Origin: Escherichia phage RB69
Length of the DNA: 64,000 bases
Strand: one strand, 5' to 3'
Sequence record: NC_004928.1
Shown: positions 3,406 to 39,362 of the stretch, in pieces
How positions within the stretch are numbered: position 1 is the stretch's first letter
Layout of the letters: each line of letters begins with the position of its first letter
Position numbers and translations under genes: made by a program
The notes under the pieces: model-generated
The model's database searches: none
Seen by the model: only the letters and a program-made list of their open reading frames with translations
What the model was told of the DNA's origin: nothing

Positions 3406-4092
3406 TTAGAAGTCGTGGGTAGAATCGGCTTCCATCGCAATAACATAACTTACTTGAGAGCTTTCAAACTTAGCTGCAACTTTATCACCAGCTCCCCACA
3501 ACATTACTTTATAGTTACCTGGCTGAATTTTCATATTAGCCATATTGATTACGAAGTTAAAGTTGTTAGAACCATCATAATCGGTAAGAGTCAAAGAATA
3601 CTTAGGACGAGTTAGTCCGGAATCTTCAACTTTATTATAGCCATTGATAACAATTTTACCATCTTTATTTGTAATAGCAATTGTATCAATCTGAAGACCA
3701 CGTGAAACTCGAAGCAATTGTTGAAGGTCTTCGGCTTTAATTTCAGTAATCACAGAAGCCACTGGGAATTGAATTGGCTTATTAGGAAAAACAATGGTGC
3801 TCTTGTCAGCGGCAGGCCAATAAACTGTGGAACGTGTATCTGCAATTTTAATATTACCATCAGTGTGCATTGAAATTTCAGCATCGTCAGACACTAGACT
3901 CAAAATGCTTAAGAAGCTATTCAAATCATAAAGTGCTACGTCAAAATCAATTTCATCAGAGATATTTGCTTCCGCATAAGTGGTGCCATTAACTGCACGA
4001 GTCATAATAAATTTACCTTGACTCAGCAGAATGCCTGAGTTAATAGAGGCAAAGTTTTTCAGAATAGCGATAGTATCTTTAGACAGTTTCAT
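3406..4092 (-). CDS. 45: sliding clamp gp45
   Basis: MKLSKDTIAILKNFASINSG matches T4 gp45; start trimmed from track ORF 3406..4107. Confidence 0.9.
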   Translation of the reverse strand: MKLSKDTIAILKNFASINSGILLSQGKFIMTRAVNGTTYAEANISDEIDFDVALYDLNSFLSILSLVSDDAEISMHTDGNIKIADTRSTVYWPAADKSTIVFPNKPIQFPVASVITEIKAEDLQQLLRVSRGLQIDTIAITNKDGKIVINGYNKVEDSGLTRPKYSLTLTDYDGSNNFNFVINMANMKIQPGNYKVMLWGAGDKVAAKFESSQVSYVIAMEADSTHDF

Positions 4093-4134
4093 TTTATTTC
4101 CTTTCAAGACAATTCAAAGTTTATAACAAATTTA

Positions 4135-4551
4135 TTATGCAGCAACCATCTGCTTTTTAATAGCTTCAGGCAGTGATTCAATATATTCTGGAATTTTAGA
4201 AGCAACAATTTCGCCAGCTGCAATTAGTTGTTCGTCGGCATCAACACAATAGAAATCTTCTAGACGCTCAGAACCGTCTTTATCAAGAACGATTTTTCCG
4301 CCAGCTTCAATAGAATCTTTATAGTGCTTACGCATCAGATGAATCCACATATCAGATACATCGTTATCAATAAAACCATAAATCATAAAACGAGTTTCTT
4401 GTGGCAAAGATTGAAGTTTTTTAGCACTTGCGTCATCACAATGCAGGACCCATGCTTTACGAACACGATTATGGTTATGTGGGTTAGCGTCAGTACGGAT
4501 AGAAGTAACTTTCAGATCAGCAGCAGTGAAACCTTTAGCAGTAGTAAACAT
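4135..4551 (-). CDS. hypothetical protein at the rpbA position (possible RNA polymerase-binding protein)
   Basis: 138-aa ORF immediately upstream of gene 45 as rpbA is in T4; assignment by synteny only. Confidence 0.45.
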   Translation of the reverse strand: MFTTAKGFTAADLKVTSIRTDANPHNHNRVRKAWVLHCDDASAKKLQSLPQETRFMIYGFIDNDVSDMWIHLMRKHYKDSIEAGGKIVLDKDGSERLEDFYCVDADEQLIAAGEIVASKIPEYIESLPEAIKKQMVAA

Positions 4552-4563
4552 ATTATTTCTCTC

Positions 4564-4764
4564 TTATTCGTAGAAGTCGGTAACTGTCCATGCGGAATTG
4601 CGATTAGACATTATTTTATTATACTCATCTTTAAAAGCAGATTTGAGCATTTGTTCAGTAACAATATGTTCTTCACCTGAAAACGTATTGGTCAGAACAT
4701 ATTTTTTAATTTCAGGGACAACAAGAAGATGTTGACCGGTTGAATACTCCATGTTGTTCTCCAT
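4564..4764 (-). CDS. hypothetical protein (45.2 position)
   Basis: 66-aa ORF with upstream promoter cassette; synteny. Confidence 0.4.
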   Translation of the reverse strand: MENNMEYSTGQHLLVVPEIKKYVLTNTFSGEEHIVTEQMLKSAFKDEYNKIMSNRNSAWTVTDFYE

Positions 4765-4765
4765 T

Positions 4766-4806
4766 TAATTTGATGTGGTCATTATAACCACATCGTGTTA
4801 AAGCGT
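4766..4806 (-). promoter_or_regulatory. early-type promoter with embedded palindrome (GATGTGGT..TATAAT..CCACATC)
   Basis: -10 TATAAT (minus strand) flanked by 8-bp inverted repeat, about 25 nt upstream of ORF start. Confidence 0.4.
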
Positions 4807-6495
4807 TTATGAAACAGTCATTACAGTAAATCGTCCAACTTTGCTCATTTGAAGATGTTGTCCATAAGCTTGTGGGTCATGGTCTCTGTGACTAATTATA
4901 AACACGTTTGCATCGGTTAGAGAGTTAAGAATTGTTGAAATAGCTTTAATACCTTCAGAATCAGTCGCTGAATCCATGACTTCGTCCATAATTAATGTAT
5001 TGATTCTAACACCAGAGACCTTTTCGGCAATATCTCGCCATGTAAACAACAATGCGATATCGATACGTGCCTTTTCACCTTGACTAAATGAAGCATAACT
5101 AAACTCTTCACGGCCACGTGATTTTATAGATTCATTGAATTCTTCATCAATAGAAAACACGTAATCAGCTTCCATGATTTTAAGGTAATGGTTAATCTGC
5201 TTGTTGAACAGAGGCACATATTTTTTAATGATAGCACCTTTAATACCAGAATCTTTTAACATATCTGTGATAATACCACGATGGTATTTTTCAAGAACGA
5301 TATCCGATTTTGTTTTAATGATTTTATCAAGTTCTTTTTGAAGCAAAGCTATCTCATCGGCATGGTCGATAAATTCCGCCGAGGCTTGTTCTATTGCAGC
5401 TTTAACTTTCTTAGCTTTATCAATAGTGGCAATCATTGCTTGTTTCTTGGTACGAATATCAGATGCAAGGTCCTGTTTAGTCTTAACATTAGCTCTATAT
5501 TCGTCCACTAGGACACTCAGATTATCTCTGTGACAGGTAAGTTGCTCGAATGAGTGATTACATTCATGAAGCTTATCGGTAATCTTAGAGACAATAGGAT
5601 CACCCTGGTGCAACTGTGATGCACAAGTAGGACATGTACCACCATCATGATACATCTTAATAACTTTGTTATATGAGTCAATTTTAGATTTAATCAAGAA
5701 TGCTTCTTGTCCGATCTTGTTGAATGCCTCAGTAGGGTCTTCATCAAGAACGATATTAAGTAGTCGCTCATTAGCTTCTTCGATTTCTGCTTTTAATGAA
5801 CGAGCTTCTTTGGCTAGGTCGTCATACATATTCTGTAGACGCGCTACATTATCACCAGATAATTTCTTTTGACGTTCGATATTCTCATTATAAATCTTAA
5901 TTTGTTGGATAACACCATCTTTCTTGGCATCGAGAACTTGTCCCTGGGAATTAAGTTCTCGAACTTGAGACTTATTGATTTTATCCATTTCAGCGAGTGT
6001 GCCAACTTCTAAAAGGTCTTCGACAAGTTTTCTACGAGCAGGGGTGCTAAGAGCCATGAAAGGGGTATACCCTGCCGTCCCAAGCACAACGATTTGTTTA
6101 AAAGACGCGTATGACATTCCGATGCTACGTTCAAATTCTTCTTGGAAGTCACGACTGCTGGCAGATTCATCAAGACGAACACCGTCAACGGAGATTTCGA
6201 AAATATTGGGCTTTTGGCCACGTTTAATGAAGTATTTTTTATCATCGAATTCCATCCAAAGCTCAACTAAGAGCTCTTTCTTGTTCGTGCTATTAATGAT
6301 TTGTCCTTTCTTAACATCACGAAATGGTTTACCGAAAAGTCCGAAAGTAATGGCTTCTAACATCGTAGATTTACCACCGCCATTTTTACCAGTGATTAAT
6401 GTCTTTTGGACTTTATCTAATTGGATATCAATAGGATTCCCACCTACCGACATGATGTTTTGATAACGAACACGATTTAATTTAAATGATTTCAT
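4807..6495 (-). CDS. 46: recombination endonuclease subunit gp46 (Rad50/SbcC-like ATPase)
   Basis: 562 aa; Walker A GKNGGGKST; similarity to T4 gp46. Confidence 0.9.
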   Translation of the reverse strand: MKSFKLNRVRYQNIMSVGGNPIDIQLDKVQKTLITGKNGGGKSTMLEAITFGLFGKPFRDVKKGQIINSTNKKELLVELWMEFDDKKYFIKRGQKPNIFEISVDGVRLDESASSRDFQEEFERSIGMSYASFKQIVVLGTAGYTPFMALSTPARRKLVEDLLEVGTLAEMDKINKSQVRELNSQGQVLDAKKDGVIQQIKIYNENIERQKKLSGDNVARLQNMYDDLAKEARSLKAEIEEANERLLNIVLDEDPTEAFNKIGQEAFLIKSKIDSYNKVIKMYHDGGTCPTCASQLHQGDPIVSKITDKLHECNHSFEQLTCHRDNLSVLVDEYRANVKTKQDLASDIRTKKQAMIATIDKAKKVKAAIEQASAEFIDHADEIALLQKELDKIIKTKSDIVLEKYHRGIITDMLKDSGIKGAIIKKYVPLFNKQINHYLKIMEADYVFSIDEEFNESIKSRGREEFSYASFSQGEKARIDIALLFTWRDIAEKVSGVRINTLIMDEVMDSATDSEGIKAISTILNSLTDANVFIISHRDHDPQAYGQHLQMSKVGRFTVMTVS

Positions 6496-6975: not shown

Positions 6976-7991
6976 TGTGTTGCCTCAATATAAAGTTCGT
7001 TGGAATATTTGACCAGCGCTTCTCTGTCTTCGTCTGAGATATCTGGAATCGCGTCAATATATTCTTTAATGATATCTTGAAGTGATTTAATCTCGATTTC
7101 CTGGTCGTCATCAGATTCAACACTGTTATCAACTTTAGAAACCATACGAAGAGAGTGAACTACTTTTTCAAGTTCAGATTCAAACTTAGTCAACTCTGAA
7201 TCAATTTCTGATACTATAACACGTACGGCTAGATTGGTATAATCAGAATAATTGATTTTGCCTTTAAACGGATAAGTGATTCGTCGATGCCATGTTGTTT
7301 CATTAGGAATAAATTCCATACGTTCAACATCAGTGTCAAATACCCAGAATCCGCGCGGGTCGTTCTCATCACCTGCAGTAAGAGTCCATGGTGTCCCAAT
7401 ATATTTGACGTTAGCAGCTTCAGAGATTGTGTGGAAGTGGCCGGACCAGACTTGTTTATAAGTCTTTAAGAAATCAGGTTCAAGCCCATGAGACTTCATC
7501 CCTTTATAGAAATAAAAGCCATTCAGTTCCCAATGACCAACACAATACGCGGCAGAAGAAGTCTTGATGTGCTCTAAGATTTCACCTGTATTTTCTTCAC
7601 ACATCCATGGAACGATATCAATCAGACATCCGTCAAAATCTACAGTAGTTGGATGCTCGTAAATAGTAAAGTTTTCAAATTGAGTTAACAATTCAGAAAC
7701 AGTGTTAGGTGTTATTGTATTCTTAAACGCCATGTCATGGTTTCCTATCGTGACATGAACGTGAATACCTGCTTTAGAAATCATATCAACGATTTCACGA
7801 TTGAATTCCATTGTACGATGTGTTATTGCTTTACGGACATCAAACCAATCGCCGTACTGAATCCAAGTTTTAATCCCGTGTTTCTTAGAGTATTCAATTG
7901 CTTGACGAATACCATCACGTTGAATATCTTGAACCCATGGGTCGTCTTGTTTGACTCCGATATGGAAGTCGCCTAAGTGCAAAATTTTCAT
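6972..7991 (-). CDS. 47: recombination endonuclease subunit gp47 (Mre11/SbcD-like phosphoesterase)
   Basis: 339 aa like T4 gp47; MKILHLGDFHIG calcineurin-like motif. Confidence 0.9.
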   Translation of the reverse strand: MKILHLGDFHIGVKQDDPWVQDIQRDGIRQAIEYSKKHGIKTWIQYGDWFDVRKAITHRTMEFNREIVDMISKAGIHVHVTIGNHDMAFKNTITPNTVSELLTQFENFTIYEHPTTVDFDGCLIDIVPWMCEENTGEILEHIKTSSAAYCVGHWELNGFYFYKGMKSHGLEPDFLKTYKQVWSGHFHTISEAANVKYIGTPWTLTAGDENDPRGFWVFDTDVERMEFIPNETTWHRRITYPFKGKINYSDYTNLAVRVIVSEIDSELTKFESELEKVVHSLRMVSKVDNSVESDDDQEIEIKSLQDIIKEYIDAIPDISDEDREALVKYSNELYIEATQ

Positions 7992-8025
7992 ATTATTTCC
8001 TCATTAGTTAATTCATTTTATCATC

Positions 8026-8051
8026 CGTTTATAAAGCAAAAAAGGAACTCC
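8026..8051 (-). terminator. rho-independent terminator (GGAACUC-UUCG-GAGUUCC followed by U-run on minus strand)
   Basis: 7-bp stem, tetraloop, T-run on transcribed strand, just upstream of gene 47. Confidence 0.55.
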
Positions 8052-8273
8052 GAAGAGTTCCTATCCACATAGTACACCGTACAGAGGCTCATTTGAACTT
8101 TTAAATCGAATGGGCTTGTATGTAATAGTTCCTTCGGCTTTAGCTTTATCATAAGACTCTTTAAAACGTCTCGTTCTTTCTGCTTTGCCTTTACGGATTT
8201 TATCGAAATTTTCAGAGGTCAGGTCGTTCGTCATGCATAATTATCTCTCAGAAAATACCTAAACCGATTTCTC

Positions 8274-8480
8274 TCATCGTTTCCACCATTTCTTAACTTG
8301 AAATGAATCAACCCACACGAGTTGTTTTGGGTCTGCCTTTACAATAGGCGGACAAATTTCTGTAATAGAACCGTCGTGATATTCCTTTTCAGAAATTTTA
8401 ACACAAAGAGGACCTCCCAATTTAAGGGTGAACCCTGCGTTCAGCTTCAGACGTTTAAACTTTGTTTGAACTAGCGCCAT
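8274..8480 (-). CDS. hypothetical protein
   Basis: Track ORF 8274..8495, start trimmed to internal ATG. Confidence 0.35.
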   Translation of the reverse strand: MALVQTKFKRLKLNAGFTLKLGGPLCVKISEKEYHDGSITEICPPIVKADPKQLVWVDSFQVKKWWKR

Positions 8481-34181: not shown

Positions 34182-34422
34182 CTCGGTCCCATGATTTGGC
34201 CATTAATTCGGACATAAATTCTTCAATGCGCGTTTCTTTAGATGGACTTTCACTATTAGAGACCGCAAGTTTGTAATCTGCAATAGGACGGAACAAATCA
34301 AGGTCCATATCAAGGTCGTCTTTGATTTGTTCTTCAGGTACATCTGTATCATACGTATACAGATAACTATCAAGTGATTCTGATTTAACGTAAATTGCTA
34401 TACTCATCTCAAATTCCTGCAT
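34171..34422 (-). CDS. hypothetical protein
   Basis: 83-aa acidic ORF. Confidence 0.4.
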   Translation of the reverse strand: MQEFEMSIAIYVKSESLDSYLYTYDTDVPEEQIKDDLDMDLDLFRPIADYKLAVSNSESPSKETRIEEFMSELMAKSWDRDDE

Positions 34423-34901
34423 TCGGTAATAAAACGTTCAACTTCATTATTCTTGGCCTTTATCTTGTCTTTACGTTCCTGTAAACTACTTTTAACAAGA
34501 TTAATAATGATGCCTACAGTACCTCCACCAATAATACCACCAATAATACTTACAATAGTAGATGCTAATAAGATAGCGATAATATCTGGTACAGCAAAGG
34601 CACTTACTTTAGTACTAAAAAACCATACCGACGGTACAAATATAATCCATCCTGTTATCCATTGGCACTTATTGAAAAACTTTTCAAGCTCAGCTTGGGT
34701 TGTTCGTATTACTTCATCGATAGGTTGATATCCATTAATGTATCTGTTCACGATAATACCTGCTGGTTTGTCGATTTTAAATGCTTGACAATGGTGTTTC
34801 ACTAAGTAGGATGGACATCCTGTCCAATCTACTGAATAGTATGAAATACCTTCGTCGCCACCGTCCATGTTTGACCAGTGAATTTTCTGTATCATTACCA
34901 A
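34404..34901 (-). CDS. membrane protein with conserved C-terminal ERFITECR tail
   Basis: 165 aa; C-terminal hydrophobic helices; shares the C-terminal tail family (see findings). Confidence 0.5.
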   Translation of the reverse strand: MVMIQKIHWSNMDGGDEGISYYSVDWTGCPSYLVKHHCQAFKIDKPAGIIVNRYINGYQPIDEVIRTTQAELEKFFNKCQWITGWIIFVPSVWFFSTKVSAFAVPDIIAILLASTIVSIIGGIIGGGTVGIIINLVKSSLQERKDKIKAKNNEVERFITECRNLR

Positions 34902-35581
34902 CCTTCCATAGGGAATTCCAGATAAACTTGAGCGTTGACACGAATTTCATTGGTAATCTTTTTAACTCGGTCCGTATTACGAGATACACGTCCGAACCAA
35001 CGCCATCCATTACTAATTGCACGAGAACCAGTGTGCCATGTTTGCCAATCAAACTGAAGAAGAGTACGGTCTGGAGCTTCCCATTTCTCTAGTTCGCCTT
35101 TTTCGATTTTTTCGAGGACTTCTTTGTGCCACTGGCGATAGATAAGTTCGCCATCAGGAATCTGACTGAACTCTGCAGTTCCTGTTGCAAAATGAGTAGG
35201 ACACACATCAGCGTTAACAAGACCAAGAATATGTTCAGACAAATAGCGAGGATTGTCATAGTCAGGTGGTCCTGCAGTAATAAAGTGTTGACCAACCGGA
35301 ATATCTGGGCGTGGTACATCGTCATGGTGATAACCTGGGATAGCAGGATACCAACCAGGCATCAGCATGTGGACTCGTGAATCAAATACTACATCCGAGT
35401 CTTTCCAATCGTCAGGGAGATTTTGGATAAAGCTACGAGTAATTGGACCGCCGTTATCAAAAGCAAAATTCAAATCGCAATTAAAGAACATAGGCTCGTT
35501 TTTAATCTGGTCGTTTTTAATCGCATGAGCAAAACCACCTACTGCACGAGCTTGACTATTAAACACTTTAGAACTATTCAT
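34895..35581 (-). CDS. hypothetical protein, possible 2OG-Fe(II) oxygenase-like fold
   Basis: candidate HxD (YHHDD), distal His (WHTG) and RxS (RVS) arrangement; weak. Confidence 0.35.
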   Translation of the reverse strand: MNSSKVFNSQARAVGGFAHAIKNDQIKNEPMFFNCDLNFAFDNGGPITRSFIQNLPDDWKDSDVVFDSRVHMLMPGWYPAIPGYHHDDVPRPDIPVGQHFITAGPPDYDNPRYLSEHILGLVNADVCPTHFATGTAEFSQIPDGELIYRQWHKEVLEKIEKGELEKWEAPDRTLLQFDWQTWHTGSRAISNGWRWFGRVSRNTDRVKKITNEIRVNAQVYLEFPMEGW

Positions 35582-35582
35582 A

Positions 35583-35888
35583 TTATTTTCCTCGACATTC
35601 TTTAATGAAATTTTCTAGATTGGTAGATTCAATAGCTTTTTTACGAGCTTCTGCGTGTTCTTCTTCAGACAATTTACGTTTATAATTGACCCAGACATTA
35701 TGGTCGAAACTAGTCGTGGCATATAATAACAATGCTCCAACGAATAGCAAAAACGGCGATAAGAATACAAAACCAGGAACACCATCCATATCGTAAGCCT
35801 TTTGTAATACTGCAACAGAAAGGGCTGCGTAAAAAAGTGATGCAAATATTGTTAAAAGACCAATTCGGTTGGTTTCGCCTAATTTCAT
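35583..35888 (-). CDS. small membrane protein with C-terminal ENFIKECR tail
   Basis: 101 aa, two hydrophobic helices. Confidence 0.5.
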   Translation of the reverse strand: MKLGETNRIGLLTIFASLFYAALSVAVLQKAYDMDGVPGFVFLSPFLLFVGALLLYATTSFDHNVWVNYKRKLSEEEHAEARKKAIESTNLENFIKECRGK

Positions 35889-35957: not shown

Positions 35958-36914
35958 TTATTTGAAAGGTTTTACCATATGGAAATTTTGTTTGAAACGT
36001 TTGACGTAATCGTCATGTCCTAAACTTTGGTACATACTTACTACTTTGCTGTAGTTTTCCCAGGCATACTCACGGAACCAACCAGAGGTGATGCTTGTAC
36101 AGACTTTTTCCAATGCCATCATAAAACTGGCTTCAGGGTTAATTTTAAAGTCATTAGGAATTTGAGAACGTTCTAATGCTAGTACACATGATTCTTCGTA
36201 TACACCAGCCAATTTGACCATTTCTGGTAATGATTCGAACTTCTCGCGTGAGGTCATGACTTCAGAGCCGTCTTTCATATAAAATGTATACGCTGGACGG
36301 TCTGTTAGTGCAATGGCTTCATGAATAGTATCATGGTCATATGTATAGATGTCATCTTTAAAGAACGCACTTTTAGAAGTGTCAAGAACCGGGTGAGCAT
36401 AGTTCAAGGTTTCTTTCTGGCGTTTCAGCATAATTTCAGTAAGTTCATCGTTCAGTGTAACACCTTTACCACGAAGATACTGAATATGGTTCATAGTCTT
36501 TAAAAAGAATGGATTATTTTTCTTGAAACGATGAGACATCTTAATTGCAAGACATATCTCAGGAGTTGCCCAGTAAAACCCGTTCAAACGGTCTTTAGTC
36601 AAATTTTTCTTGGCGTATTTTAAAAGGTCATAAGAAGACGTGAAATCTTCAGGAGTGAGTTCACCGATTAATTCACGGACATTAGTGATTGCCGGAACAA
36701 TATATGCTTCAAAATGAGTTTCGCGTCCATTATGGAAGCATTTGAAAACTTGGACATCAGGGTTATCTTGGTGAACATATACACCCATCATTTGATTTTT
36801 GAATGCATTCCAAGAACATTGGTCCGCAATAAAGTCCCAATCGCTATTTTTGATAGCGCTAGAATCAATAAGACCGTGATAGTGAAGTGCACGAGAACCA
36901 ATAACCAACATCAT
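35958..36914 (-). CDS. hypothetical protein (318 aa); weak nucleotidyltransferase-like or HD-like motifs
   Basis: N-terminal GSRALHYHG...SDWDF and later DHD; assignment tentative. Confidence 0.45.
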   Translation of the reverse strand: MMLVIGSRALHYHGLIDSSAIKNSDWDFIADQCSWNAFKNQMMGVYVHQDNPDVQVFKCFHNGRETHFEAYIVPAITNVRELIGELTPEDFTSSYDLLKYAKKNLTKDRLNGFYWATPEICLAIKMSHRFKKNNPFFLKTMNHIQYLRGKGVTLNDELTEIMLKRQKETLNYAHPVLDTSKSAFFKDDIYTYDHDTIHEAIALTDRPAYTFYMKDGSEVMTSREKFESLPEMVKLAGVYEESCVLALERSQIPNDFKINPEASFMMALEKVCTSITSGWFREYAWENYSKVVSMYQSLGHDDYVKRFKQNFHMVKPFK

Positions 36915-36942: not shown

Positions 36943-37194
36943 TTAAATTTCACGACATGCGATATCATATTCATCCCAGAGGTCATCGTGTGAAGCCTCT
37001 ACCAATGGAACGATTGTGCCGTTTATGTCTTCATTATAAGGGCAAATTGTACAGTGCGCATCTTCGAATCGGATGCCTTTGTGTTCAGATTTTTTATAAC
37101 GCATATCGAATATCTTTGCAAACTTTTCACGAGTAATGGTTTTAGCAACCACTTTGGTTCCGATACTTTCGTAATAAATCATTGTGGACTCCAT
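36943..37194 (-). CDS. hypothetical protein
   Basis: 83-aa ORF with CxxC..H motif. Confidence 0.45.
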   Translation of the reverse strand: MESTMIYYESIGTKVVAKTITREKFAKIFDMRYKKSEHKGIRFEDAHCTICPYNEDINGTIVPLVEASHDDLWDEYDIACREI

Positions 37195-37200
37195 TTAATT

Positions 37201-37240
37201 TGATAGGACTACTATAACATAGCCCTATCTTGTTGTAAAC
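37201..37240 (-). promoter_or_regulatory. early promoter cassette (canonical family)
   Basis: GTTTACA..TAGGGCTATGTTATAGTAGTCCTATCA. Confidence 0.5.
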
Positions 37241-37244
37241 TGTT

Positions 37245-37442
37245 TTAGCAAGAATAACTAGATGATACCCAGCCTTGAACAGTAATACTATTATTTGATA
37301 ACGAGATTGCGTCCTGGAGATTCAGACCTGCGTTATCTTCAATCCATAATGTAACTTCTTCGCGTTCTTCTGTTGCAATTTGGAACAGGTTTTCCAGAGC
37401 AGCTACTGCCGTACGTACAGCACAATCTAATTCGCGAGACAT
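37245..37442 (-). CDS. small protein, member of a tandem mosaic trio
   Basis: 65 aa; C-terminus GWVSSSYSC shared with 37452..37724. Confidence 0.45.
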   Translation of the reverse strand: MSRELDCAVRTAVAALENLFQIATEEREEVTLWIEDNAGLNLQDAISLSNNSITVQGWVSSSYSC

Positions 37443-37451
37443 ATTGTTTCC

Positions 37452-37724
37452 TTAGCAAGTGTGAGAAGATGCGACCCAACCACCAGTTTCGAGGCTCAGG
37501 TTGTAGTCGTATTGGTAAACGTCAGCCCATTCAGCATAGCCGTTTTTTGTACAACGTTCAAGATCGGCTTTAAGATGTCCGGGTGAATGATAGGTTCCAC
37601 CCATACCATAAGCTGGGTACAAGTCGAATGTTGTGTTTTGTTTATCAGCAATTTCTTTGGCAGCCTCAATAGCTGCATAGATTTTTGCTACAGCTTCAGT
37701 CAGTTCGGTTTGTTCTTTAGACAT
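37452..37724 (-). CDS. small protein, member of a tandem mosaic trio
   Basis: 90 aa; YGMGGTYHSPG motif shared with 37825..38040 and GWVASSHTC tail shared with 37245..37442. Confidence 0.45.
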   Translation of the reverse strand: MSKEQTELTEAVAKIYAAIEAAKEIADKQNTTFDLYPAYGMGGTYHSPGHLKADLERCTKNGYAEWADVYQYDYNLSLETGGWVASSHTC

Positions 37725-37824
37725 AATGATTCCTTAGCACAACGCAGGAGACGAAACCCAAGCACCTTCAGTAATAACGTAACCATTACCTTCACGCTTA
37801 ACATCGCCACCATTATTTTCAATT

Positions 37825-38040
37825 TCATTTTTCATACCACTGGGATACGATTTCACCCTTAGGATAATAAGTACGACCGCTACCATAATCACCTACAGAA
37901 AATGATACGGCATATTGGTCTGCGATCTTTGTTGCTTCTTCTTCGATACGTTCAGCTTGATTCAGAAGTTTATAAATTGCATCTGAAGCGGATTTGGCAT
38001 CATTAAATTCTGGTACTTTAATTTCGATAATCTTACTCAT
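37825..38040 (-). CDS. small protein, member of a tandem mosaic trio
   Basis: 71 aa; YGSGRTYYPKG motif. Confidence 0.45.
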   Translation of the reverse strand: MSKIIEIKVPEFNDAKSASDAIYKLLNQAERIEEEATKIADQYAVSFSVGDYGSGRTYYPKGEIVSQWYEK

Positions 38041-38396
38041 TTTCTACATTCCTTAATAAAGTTTTCTATTGTTTCATTTTCACGTTTAGCTAGGAGTTCA
38101 TTATAACTAATCATTTGAGAAGCGTAAACCTTTTTATTTTTCTTGTTATGGTTTATAAAATCGTAGTAAAAATAGACTACAGTACAAAATGATGCGATGG
38201 ATGCAAAGGCTTGGGTATACCGTAAGTCCTGCCATTGGTCTGTGAATCCGCCAGTGTTTCCTATAAATCCTAACACAACGCCGTCAATAAGAAATCCAAC
38301 TAATCCAAAGGCAAATCCCATGCCAATACTCATAATAAAAATTAGAATGTTCTCACCAAGAGAAGGCCATACGGTTAAGAGTTGAGGCTTTTGCAT
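38037..38396 (-). CDS. membrane protein with C-terminal ENFIKECRK tail
   Basis: 119 aa, glycine-rich TM helices. Confidence 0.5.
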   Translation of the reverse strand: MQKPQLLTVWPSLGENILIFIMSIGMGFAFGLVGFLIDGVVLGFIGNTGGFTDQWQDLRYTQAFASIASFCTVVYFYYDFINHNKKNKKVYASQMISYNELLAKRENETIENFIKECRK

Positions 38397-38770
38397 CTTA
38401 TTTCCTTAACGAATTCCATAGCTTCTTCATATTCATACTTTTTAACAGCTTCATCATACTGAGCTTGGGCTTTTGCGCACTGAACTTTCCACTCACGAAC
38501 TCGAGCTCTGTGATGACGGCCTTGGTGCCAATATCCTACCCAATTAATAGGCATTAATAAAAACGGTACAATAAGTGGTGCGACGAACATTAATGAAAAT
38601 GCTGCATCAGACGATATAACTTCACTAGAATCTAAAACAGCTCCTATAATCATAAAGATTAAAAATGCTAAAGCTAAAATAGGGCCAAATAGTACTTCAT
38701 TAGGAATTAATTTACGTTTGTATTCGTATGCCCAGGGCTTACTTGGCATGTATAGGGTTGGCTTTGACAT
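38375..38770 (-). CDS. membrane protein with C-terminal EFVKEIRCK tail
   Basis: Track ORF 38375..38800 trimmed to MSKPTLY. Confidence 0.45.
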   Translation of the reverse strand: MSKPTLYMPSKPWAYEYKRKLIPNEVLFGPILALAFLIFMIIGAVLDSSEVISSDAAFSLMFVAPLIVPFLLMPINWVGYWHQGRHHRARVREWKVQCAKAQAQYDEAVKKYEYEEAMEFVKEIRCKSLNS

Positions 38771-39362
38771 ATTCTCTACATTCCATAATAAATTGCTCAA
38801 GGATTAAATTGTTAGTGAAATTAGGACTAACAACCATAGTTTCATAAAGCGCATCAATAGCACTTAAAGCATCAACTCTTTTAAGCAAAGGCTTGCCTTC
38901 ATACATAGTTTCAGAATCGATGATTAACGTAAAGTAATATTTTTTATTATCGACTAGAACTTCTGTATCGATATAAAACATATTAGACCTCAGAAGCTTA
39001 TCTCTAAAACCATAATAATCTTCAGAGCGTTCGCTGATATATTCCCATTCAGTGTTTAAACAACAAACAGACCATGTAGGAGCAACGAAATCAGTGAATC
39101 TAATATCATGGTCTGCAACTAGTTTAGCAATAGCTCCGATATCATGAATCATAATACCTGGGGCTAATAAAGATTTTCTGCTATGGCTAGCCGTTTTCTC
39201 GGTGGTCTCATAAGAAGACGACCAGTACCATTTACGTCCGGTTGCAACATATCGTAATGAATCAACTAAAGACGTAGGTGGATTTACCTTATCTCGGAAC
39301 TCTTCAAACATTGAGTCAATATCATTATTTTGGTTTCGCATGTTAACTCCTTTATTATCCAA
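38739..39362 (-). CDS. hypothetical protein with C-terminal EQFIMECREY tail
   Basis: 207-aa ORF. Confidence 0.5.
   Translation of the reverse strand: MDNKGVNMRNQNNDIDSMFEEFRDKVNPPTSLVDSLRYVATGRKWYWSSSYETTEKTASHSRKSLLAPGIMIHDIGAIAKLVADHDIRFTDFVAPTWSVCCLNTEWEYISERSEDYYGFRDKLLRSNMFYIDTEVLVDNKKYYFTLIIDSETMYEGKPLLKRVDALSAIDALYETMVVSPNFTNNLILEQFIMECREYVKANPIHAK

Follow-up and report, generated by a model that had tools for sequence, protein, structure and literature searches.

Cys-tailed small proteins in tandem in phage RB69: one broken gene copy and a conserved linkage to a DUF7277-DUF7275 gene

Within the 64,000-nucleotide stretch of the Escherichia phage RB69 genome analysed here (sequence record NC_004928.1; hereafter the window), three neighbouring small genes, referred to as A, B and C, occupy positions 37,245 to 38,040 in a region where all genes lie on the minus strand. 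A first-pass annotation had described them as open reading frames (ORFs) of 71, 90 and 65 amino acids with shared motifs, and the ORFs and the quoted motifs are indeed present. The region is 97-99% identical to that of Mosigvirus phages (T4-like, RB69 group). The ATG of gene A overlaps the stop codon of the e.3-like gene (ATGA), and the A-B and B-C spacers are 9 nucleotides each, with an identical junction of TGC-TAA-GGAA-n5-ATG. The 71-amino acid ORF of gene A encodes an N-terminal helix and the hairpin motif YGSGRTYYP, and ends at an early stop codon produced by a frameshift. In gene C the N-terminal helix is present and the YG.G.TY hairpin absent; the tail codons of genes B and C are 37455..37478 and 37248..37271, respectively. 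In addition, an independent repeat search located three copies of a tail-coding 30-mer, at 37245, 37452 and 37734, and all three genes carry a Cys tail at both the DNA and the protein level. The features of the locus, including the gene of a DUF7277-DUF7275 protein referred to as the partner, are collected in Table 1.

Table 1. Features of the trio region and its surroundings in the window
Feature	Position	Strand	Description
Gene A, 5' part	37825..38040	-	71 amino acids, identical to RB69ORF139c; phrog_899, E = 2.3e-17
Single extra base in gene A	37836	-	T on the coding strand (A on the plus strand); from alignments to relatives
Gene A, 3' remainder	37734..37835	-	+1 frame, within a 52-amino acid ORF, 37734..37892
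Gene B	37452..37724	-	90 amino acids, intact typical family member; YGMGGTYHSP and tail GGWVASSHTC
Gene C	37245..37442	-	65 amino acids; phrog_4882; tail QGWVSSSYSC
Promoter-like site TTTACA-17-TATAGT	37211..37239	-	TG extension; just after gene C
Intervening gene between C and partner	36943..37194	-	83 amino acids; phrog_3723
Partner gene	35958..36914	-	318 amino acids, RB69ORF134c-like; phrog_2141
e.3-like membrane protein	38037..38396	-	119 amino acids; directly upstream of A; neighbouring gene, outside the conserved module
Promoter-like site TTTACG-17-TATAAT	38100..38128	-	within e.3, preceding the trio

Relatives have an upstream gene made up of one uninterrupted ORF, 101 amino acids long and ending in GAWVSSSALC, and this intact form is present in approximately 137 related phages. 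In the window, the extra base changes the CAGTGG-ATGAAA of the relatives to CAGTGGTATGAAA, and the 3' remainder of the gene encodes ...EIENNGGDVKREGNGYVITEGAWVSSPALC, the tail reading GAWVSSPALC. The first-pass annotation, in which the upstream gene shared only the hairpin motif with the middle gene and the downstream gene only the tail, was thus right about the motifs that it quoted but incomplete as to the pattern, since the upstream gene also encodes the tail in its +1 frame. The insertion is private to the RB69 window genome. The extra T is absent from the four aligned relatives, the alignments covering the full gene in SA79RD and F31 and its 3' portion in TH58 and DCP548. In 137 of 139 Mosigvirus records a 360-nucleotide query spans 359 nucleotides, the exceptions being TH58 and DCP548, which on direct check also lack the extra T. 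A 49-nucleotide megablast query centred on the insertion matched no record, a weak test because of word-size and low-complexity limits, and one whose empty result fits the insertion being private.

The differences from SA79RD and F31 upstream of the insertion amount to two changes, both synonymous, whereas downstream of it the window carries two private non-synonymous changes, D to N and S to P, that are absent also from TH58 and DCP548. The S to P change affects position -3 relative to the terminal Cys, which is occupied by Ser in 180 of 181 family members. In sequence terms, the 3' part of gene A looks like the decay of an untranslated tail, suggesting that the break is probably a real mutation. 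Gene A is, on this comparison, best regarded as a real or incipient pseudogene in the window genome, with genes B and C intact, and RB69ORF139c and the following 52-amino acid ORF should be merged in the annotation and flagged as one frameshifted gene.

It is improbable that the break is instead bypassed by programmed +1 frameshifting, or is a sequencing error, such that all three proteins are made. The frameshift site, ...GAA AAA UGA A..., does lend itself to a slip, as the out-of-frame stretch is three codons long and the stop codon follows AAA, where a +1 slip would restore ...WYEK-EIENN...GAWVSSPALC; the source record appears to be the RB69 reference record, presumably an older sequence, which would favour an error. 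However, the insertion is missing in the approximately 137 relatives that encode a plain 101-amino acid ORF, no +1 signal or stimulator is known, and the occurrence of S to P and D to N downstream, as opposed to synonymous changes only upstream, is decay-like. Gene A was also considered, and rejected, as a programmed +1 frameshift gene, given that the insertion is private and relatives have an uninterrupted ORF, where a site conserved among relatives would be expected. Truncated or frameshifted versions of A or B occur in other genomes or assemblies (P0011, P0012, P0021); for instance, a 75-amino acid version of B is found in vB_Eco_mar005P1 (in a cluster of 10 member sequences). The A and B genes are either frequently broken or frequently mis-sequenced.

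When the extra base is deleted, the repaired gene A contains both YG.G.TY and the tail, as does gene B, and the apparent mosaic of the trio is therefore the product of one copy having been split. The similarity itself exceeds chance, with pairwise BLASTP E values of 2e-4 to 3e-4 for A (101 amino acids)/B, B/C and A/C and far stronger profile scores, and the view of the first-pass annotation that the genes are paralogues is upheld. Full-length orthologues of each type are present in other T4-like genera, at 34-62% identity for A, 50-56% for B and 36-63% for C; between types, identity is approximately 28%, or matches are restricted to the tail. The existence of such own-type orthologues across genera indicates that the triplication is older than those T4-like genera. 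To judge from these alignments, the trio goes back to an old triplication, after which each copy was maintained on its own, and is not the outcome of recent recombination.

The proposal that the middle gene B is a mosaic, built from both neighbours by recent recombination or gene conversion, drew on the YG.G.TY motif that B has in common with the 71-amino acid ORF and the tail that it has in common with C, and could also appeal to the fact that the profile similarity of C to the family lies in the tail only. It has nevertheless become very hard to credit: intact A genes of relatives carry both motifs, each of the three types has its own orthologues in other genera, in unrelated phages, too, the genes normally occur as 2-5 diverged copies in tandem, and the DNA that encodes the shared motifs is no more than 63-76% identical and lacks the long identical tracts that gene conversion would leave. 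In the case of gene C, similarity between the C-type and the family profile is confined to the final 14 residues (hhalign probability 92%, E = 8e-7), and the helix aligns plausibly to the family, which is suggestive but no proof of common descent of the whole protein. Gene C belongs to phrog_4882 with E = 1e-36, and the family hidden Markov model (HMM) missed the Mosigvirus C-type ORF (L010).

The extent of the family was assessed by an exhaustive profile search of a library of 1.8 billion proteins, which returned 570 clusters (at 50% identity) with E <= 1e-3, 60 of them with E <= 1e-10. Members of these clusters are 67-143 amino acids long, and the match nearly always reaches the last residue. 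The 71-amino acid A fragment scores E = 3.9e-18 and the B type E = 4.9e-21 against the family profile, and both fall within phrog_899 (E = 2e-17 for A and 6e-19 for B). The Cys-terminated tails, singled out as unusual in the first-pass annotation, turn out to be the hallmark of the family, as 183 of 198 fetched proteins end in Cys and 180 match a terminal W..SS..C. Of 181 members, 105 have no Cys other than the terminal one, and the median isoelectric point is 4.5. The family consensus runs from a helix (...EAExIADExG) through xFxF..YGMGGTYYP and an acidic variable linker to G-x-W-x-S-S-S-x-x-C, the hairpin motif in A and B being glycine-rich with the form YG-M/S-G-G/R-T-Y-Y-P. The unifying element is the tail, W-x-[S/A/P]-S-S-x-x-Cys-COOH, which is found on otherwise unrelated bodies of 60-180 amino acids, as would be expected if the tail is a functional handle.

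An AlphaFold2 model of the gene B product, made with 137 sequences, has a predicted local distance difference test score (pLDDT) of 95.9. In the A/B body, a long N-terminal helix is packed against a three-stranded sheet; in the B model, helix 3-29 is followed by the hairpin strands 32-35 and 43-46, the loop of which contains YGMGG, by helix 48-60, and then by strand 81-85 (GGWVA), a final turn at 86-89 (SSHT) and Cys90. By helix geometry, the Ser residues at positions -4 and -3 and the Cys would share one face of this final turn. A tblastn search with intact A matched 394 phage records, with hosts that include Escherichia, Aeromonas, Enterobacter, Klebsiella, Serratia, Yersinia, Erwinia (a jumbo phage) and Acinetobacter, and among the matches listed (60 of the 394 records) the family is annotated as hypothetical throughout. 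The A, B and C proteins and typical members have no match in Pfam or NCBIfam, a sequence and profile search of the PDB with the small-protein family gave noise only, and the PADLOC models of anti-phage defence and anti-defence gave only noise (E >= 0.01) for the small proteins.

The first clue to a genetic context was an approximately 300-amino acid DUF7277/DUF7275 protein encoded just downstream of two distant family members, one in a 60-kb soil phage and the other in a 371-kb jumbo contig. The same order is seen in the window, where gene C (end at 37245) lies upstream of the partner gene (start at 36914), both on the minus strand. The linkage was followed from both directions. Starting from the partner, 80 viral loci were sampled that encode proteins with 37-97% identity to the window protein and lie on T4-like genomes, contigs of 30-100 kb and contigs of 300-390 kb. 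A family ORF was identified by HMM in 72 of these loci at E <= 0.01 (69 at E <= 0.001), on the same strand as the partner in all 72 and upstream of it in all but one, with one copy in 26 loci, two in 33 and three in 13. Of the eight loci with no HMM match, five have upstream ORFs with the same tail on divergent bodies, and one has no upstream sequence, bringing the number of loci with one or more tail-bearing genes to 77 of the 79 that are testable. For instance, L080 (4099-5645, on a 368-kb jumbo contig) has five tandem copies with ends of the form FW[VI]PSSM[ES]C, L086 has the tail on proteins of 150-180 amino acids, and L031 has a type of approximately 74-81 amino acids ending in W..SSC, a type that recurs in 28 T4-like loci.

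Starting from the small proteins, a degenerate DNA pattern for YGMGGTY yielded 73 loci, 43 of which hold true family members. A DUF7275 ORF lies downstream on the same strand in 33 of the 33 loci with enough downstream sequence; the remaining 10 family loci have at most 815 nucleotides of downstream sequence each. The gap between the small gene and the DUF7275 ORF ranges from -1519 to +1366 nucleotides, with 32 of the 33 within -217 to +1366. None of the 30 chance matches to the YGMGGTY pattern has a DUF7275 ORF downstream. No third gene is common to most of the 80 loci, the next most frequent being present in at most 25 and reflecting lineage-specific synteny. A search of 185,579 species genomes detected the partner on no more than 5 contigs, all assembled from metagenomes and probably of phage origin. 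A DUF7277-DUF7275 gene preceded, on the same strand, by one to five tail-bearing genes therefore constitutes a conserved, phage-restricted two-part module.

As an observation on array structure, some T4-like genera (L011-L013 and L018, about 3850-5330) have five consecutive Cys-terminated paralogues upstream of DUF7275, and these arrays include a type of approximately 74 amino acids with an internal DWLNSSCYGE and a C-terminal IWxPSSC.

In the partner protein, DUF7277 spans residues 2-101 (E = 1.4e-27) and DUF7275 residues 120-305 (Pfam E = 4.8e-79). Across 38 diverse sequences, G6, S7, A9, D25 and D27 are invariant in the N-terminal part and E69 is nearly so; the C-terminal part has a longer set of invariant residues, dense in His, Asp, Glu, Cys and Arg and including K125, H128, K139, T140, R165, Y172, H174, P175, H194, D195, H198, E240, E241, E248, R249, K270, C272, S274, S277, G278, R281 and E282. 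Such a pattern of residues appears enzyme-like. The N-terminal motif consists of hhhGS, 17 residues, DxD, and then a strand with E. An hhhGS-x(17)-DxD...E pattern is typical of Pol-beta-type nucleotidyltransferases.

Taken together, these data make it probable that the trio represents ancient tandem paralogues, with A broken, that form the small-protein half of a module with an enzyme-like partner. In the mechanism proposed, the small proteins would be partners of the DUF7277-DUF7275 protein, most likely its substrates or carrier or scaffold proteins, and the Ser-Ser-x-x-Cys-COOH end would be the site that it recognises and probably modifies. The GS...DxD...E pattern of the partner makes nucleotidylation of Ser or activation of the C-terminus the leading guesses for the chemistry, and a Ser-Cys or Trp-Cys cross-link would be a further candidate. 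The diverged copies would be alternative substrates or scaffolds and not redundant genes, and the module would act before replication. The more specific version, in which W-x-x-S-S-x-x-Cys-COOH proteins are dedicated substrates or scaffolds on which the partner installs an undescribed C-terminal Ser/Cys modification, such as nucleotidylation of Ser, a Ser-Cys or Trp-Cys cross-link, or terminal-Cys chemistry, is put forward tentatively. If true, it would define a new class of phage-encoded protein-modification module that is used early in infection by both T4-like and jumbo phages.

Several points weigh against this interpretation of the module. The interaction of the small proteins with the partner, and their modification by it, are both inferred. 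The assignment of the partner as a nucleotidyltransferase is a guess from a short motif: the whole protein and its N-terminal domain gave only noise against PDB profiles, Pfam scans of the 38 partner members detected no nucleotidyltransferase relative, and hhalign comparison of the partner profile with two aminoglycoside nucleotidyltransferases, AadA and kanamycin nucleotidyltransferase, gave no match. Single-sequence structure prediction of the partner reached a pLDDT of 37, with no usable fold. The frameshift in gene A may stem from a sequencing error behind the source record. Finally, gene C is separated from the partner gene by the 83-amino acid gene, by a promoter-like site and by a terminator that the record of a relative annotates, such that co-transcription is not assured.

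It is also conceivable, if rather doubtful, that the small proteins act alone, as host-takeover or anti-defence binders or as sponges of nucleotide signals through the YGMGGT loop, in which case shared regulation or co-inheritance would be all that lies behind the linkage to DUF7275. The proteins are small, acidic and probably expressed early, and are encoded in a variable accessory region; T4 is absent among the matches listed (60 of the 394 tblastn records obtained with intact A), and the truncated variants elsewhere (P0011, P0012, P0021) suggest that the genes are dispensable in the laboratory. Yet linkage in 33/33 and 77/79 loci, with fixed order and strand and in phages that share no other local genes, is hard to account for without functional coupling, and the tail is retained in C-type proteins and in many divergent members from which the glycine-rich loop is missing.

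Expression of the module is probably pre-replicative, that is early or middle, to go by promoter-like sites and an annotation in a relative, which form a weak basis. The record of SA79RD has a T4 middle promoter annotated at the place equivalent to the promoter-like site inside e.3, and a terminator is also called in that record in the stretch of the site that follows gene C. Promoter and terminator scans of the region produced consensus matches no more frequent than the shuffled expectation. The trio may form one early or middle transcription unit and the partner gene another. The 83-amino acid product of the gene between them has no terminal Cys; the gene is conserved only among T4-like phages and elsewhere falls outside the conserved pair. 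It contains H-C-T-I-C and a late C-R-E-I.

A second paralogous set surrounds the trio, and consists of small membrane proteins with a shared E-x-F-I-x-E-C-R tail. The e.3-like, ORF133c-like, e.2-like and possibly e.4-like proteins (38037..38396, 35583..35888, 34404..34901 and 38375..38800, all on the minus strand) have the tails ...ENFIKECRK, ...ENFIKECRGK, ...ERFITECRNLR and ...EFVKEIRCKSLNS, and E-x-F-I-x-E-C-R-like tails are also found in ORFs of locus L027. The e.3-like membrane protein of the vB_Eco_F31 record (L002, 2637-2996) is annotated as a 'sulfurtransferase', a label that is probably an annotation artefact, since Pfam and PHROGs give it no support for the window copy. Two genes downstream of the partner, a 228-amino acid ORF (34895..35581, minus strand; ...PGYHHDDVPRP...) has conserved counterparts in 17 T4-like loci. 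Just downstream of the DUF7275 gene, jumbo-phage loci encode a calcineurin-like metallophosphoesterase (PF00149; 13 of the 80 loci, for instance L008 at 7647-8426 and L040 at 7198-7977, plus 11 others), and in two unrelated contexts genes for RNA ligase, polynucleotide kinase and DNA ligase lie near the DUF7275 gene.

By direct HMM membership, genes A and B belong to phrog_899, gene C to phrog_4882, and the partner to phrog_2141 and to DUF7277 and DUF7275 of Pfam. Proteins of these three PHROGs are 'hypothetical' in hundreds of phage records and are catalogued without function. The literature searched contained no mention of the invariant Cys tail, the obligate pairing, these DUFs, the PHROGs or the ORF names. 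The searches found no characterised relative of either half of the module, which does not in itself demonstrate a new mechanism. Taken by itself, the trio is an ordinary group of hypothetical genes, located where the genome of a T4-like phage is variable, but it exposes a very regular pattern retained by phage lineages in the hundreds, with sizes ranging from 30 kb (contigs) to 390 kb (jumbo phages). For the two DUF domains and three PHROGs concerned, this provides a concrete experimental lead, one that may reveal new protein chemistry or a new mechanism of host takeover or anti-defence.

Three groups of known systems offer partial parallels. Clusters for ribosomally synthesised and post-translationally modified peptides likewise place 1-5 tandem small genes beside one enzyme-like gene. 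Lanthionine and aminovinyl-cysteine (AviCys) rings, as in lanthipeptides and AviCys peptides, use a spacing of Ser at -3 and terminal Cys, and the proteins here end in Cys and have invariant Ser at -3 and -4. However, the small proteins are 60-180 amino acids long and predicted to be folded (pLDDT 96), not of leader-core organisation, and the part that is conserved is the putative 'core' and not the leader. Classification as lanthipeptide or AviCys precursors was considered and discarded, as no LanB, LanC, LanM, LanD, YcaO or radical-SAM gene is nearby, the proteins are predicted to be globular, and only the Ser/Cys spacing is similar.

The second group comprises pairs of a nucleotidyltransferase and a small protein (GlnD-PII, MntA-HepT, MenA-MenT and AbiE); here, too, a protein with a nucleotidyltransferase-like motif is encoded beside small proteins, which have invariant Ser, Thr and Tyr. 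The module differs from this group in that sequence and profile comparisons matched the partner to no nucleotidyltransferase, that it is restricted to phages, and that a fold search assigned no PII, HEPN or antitoxin fold to the small proteins. The small acidic proteins could also be antitoxin-like inhibitors or regulators that restrain the downstream partner enzyme by binding it, without covalent chemistry at the tail, an explanation that seems unlikely. The third group is that of the ubiquitin-like or sulfur-carrier proteins ThiS, MoaD and CysO and of C-terminal scaffold peptides as in TglA-type 'pearlin' pathways. Although the fold of the small proteins is not beta-grasp and their end is not Gly-Gly, and although the partner was not E1-like or LanB-like in any search, these systems resemble the mechanism proposed here in combining a small protein that has a functional extreme C-terminus with an activating enzyme, and the partner here has an invariant C272.
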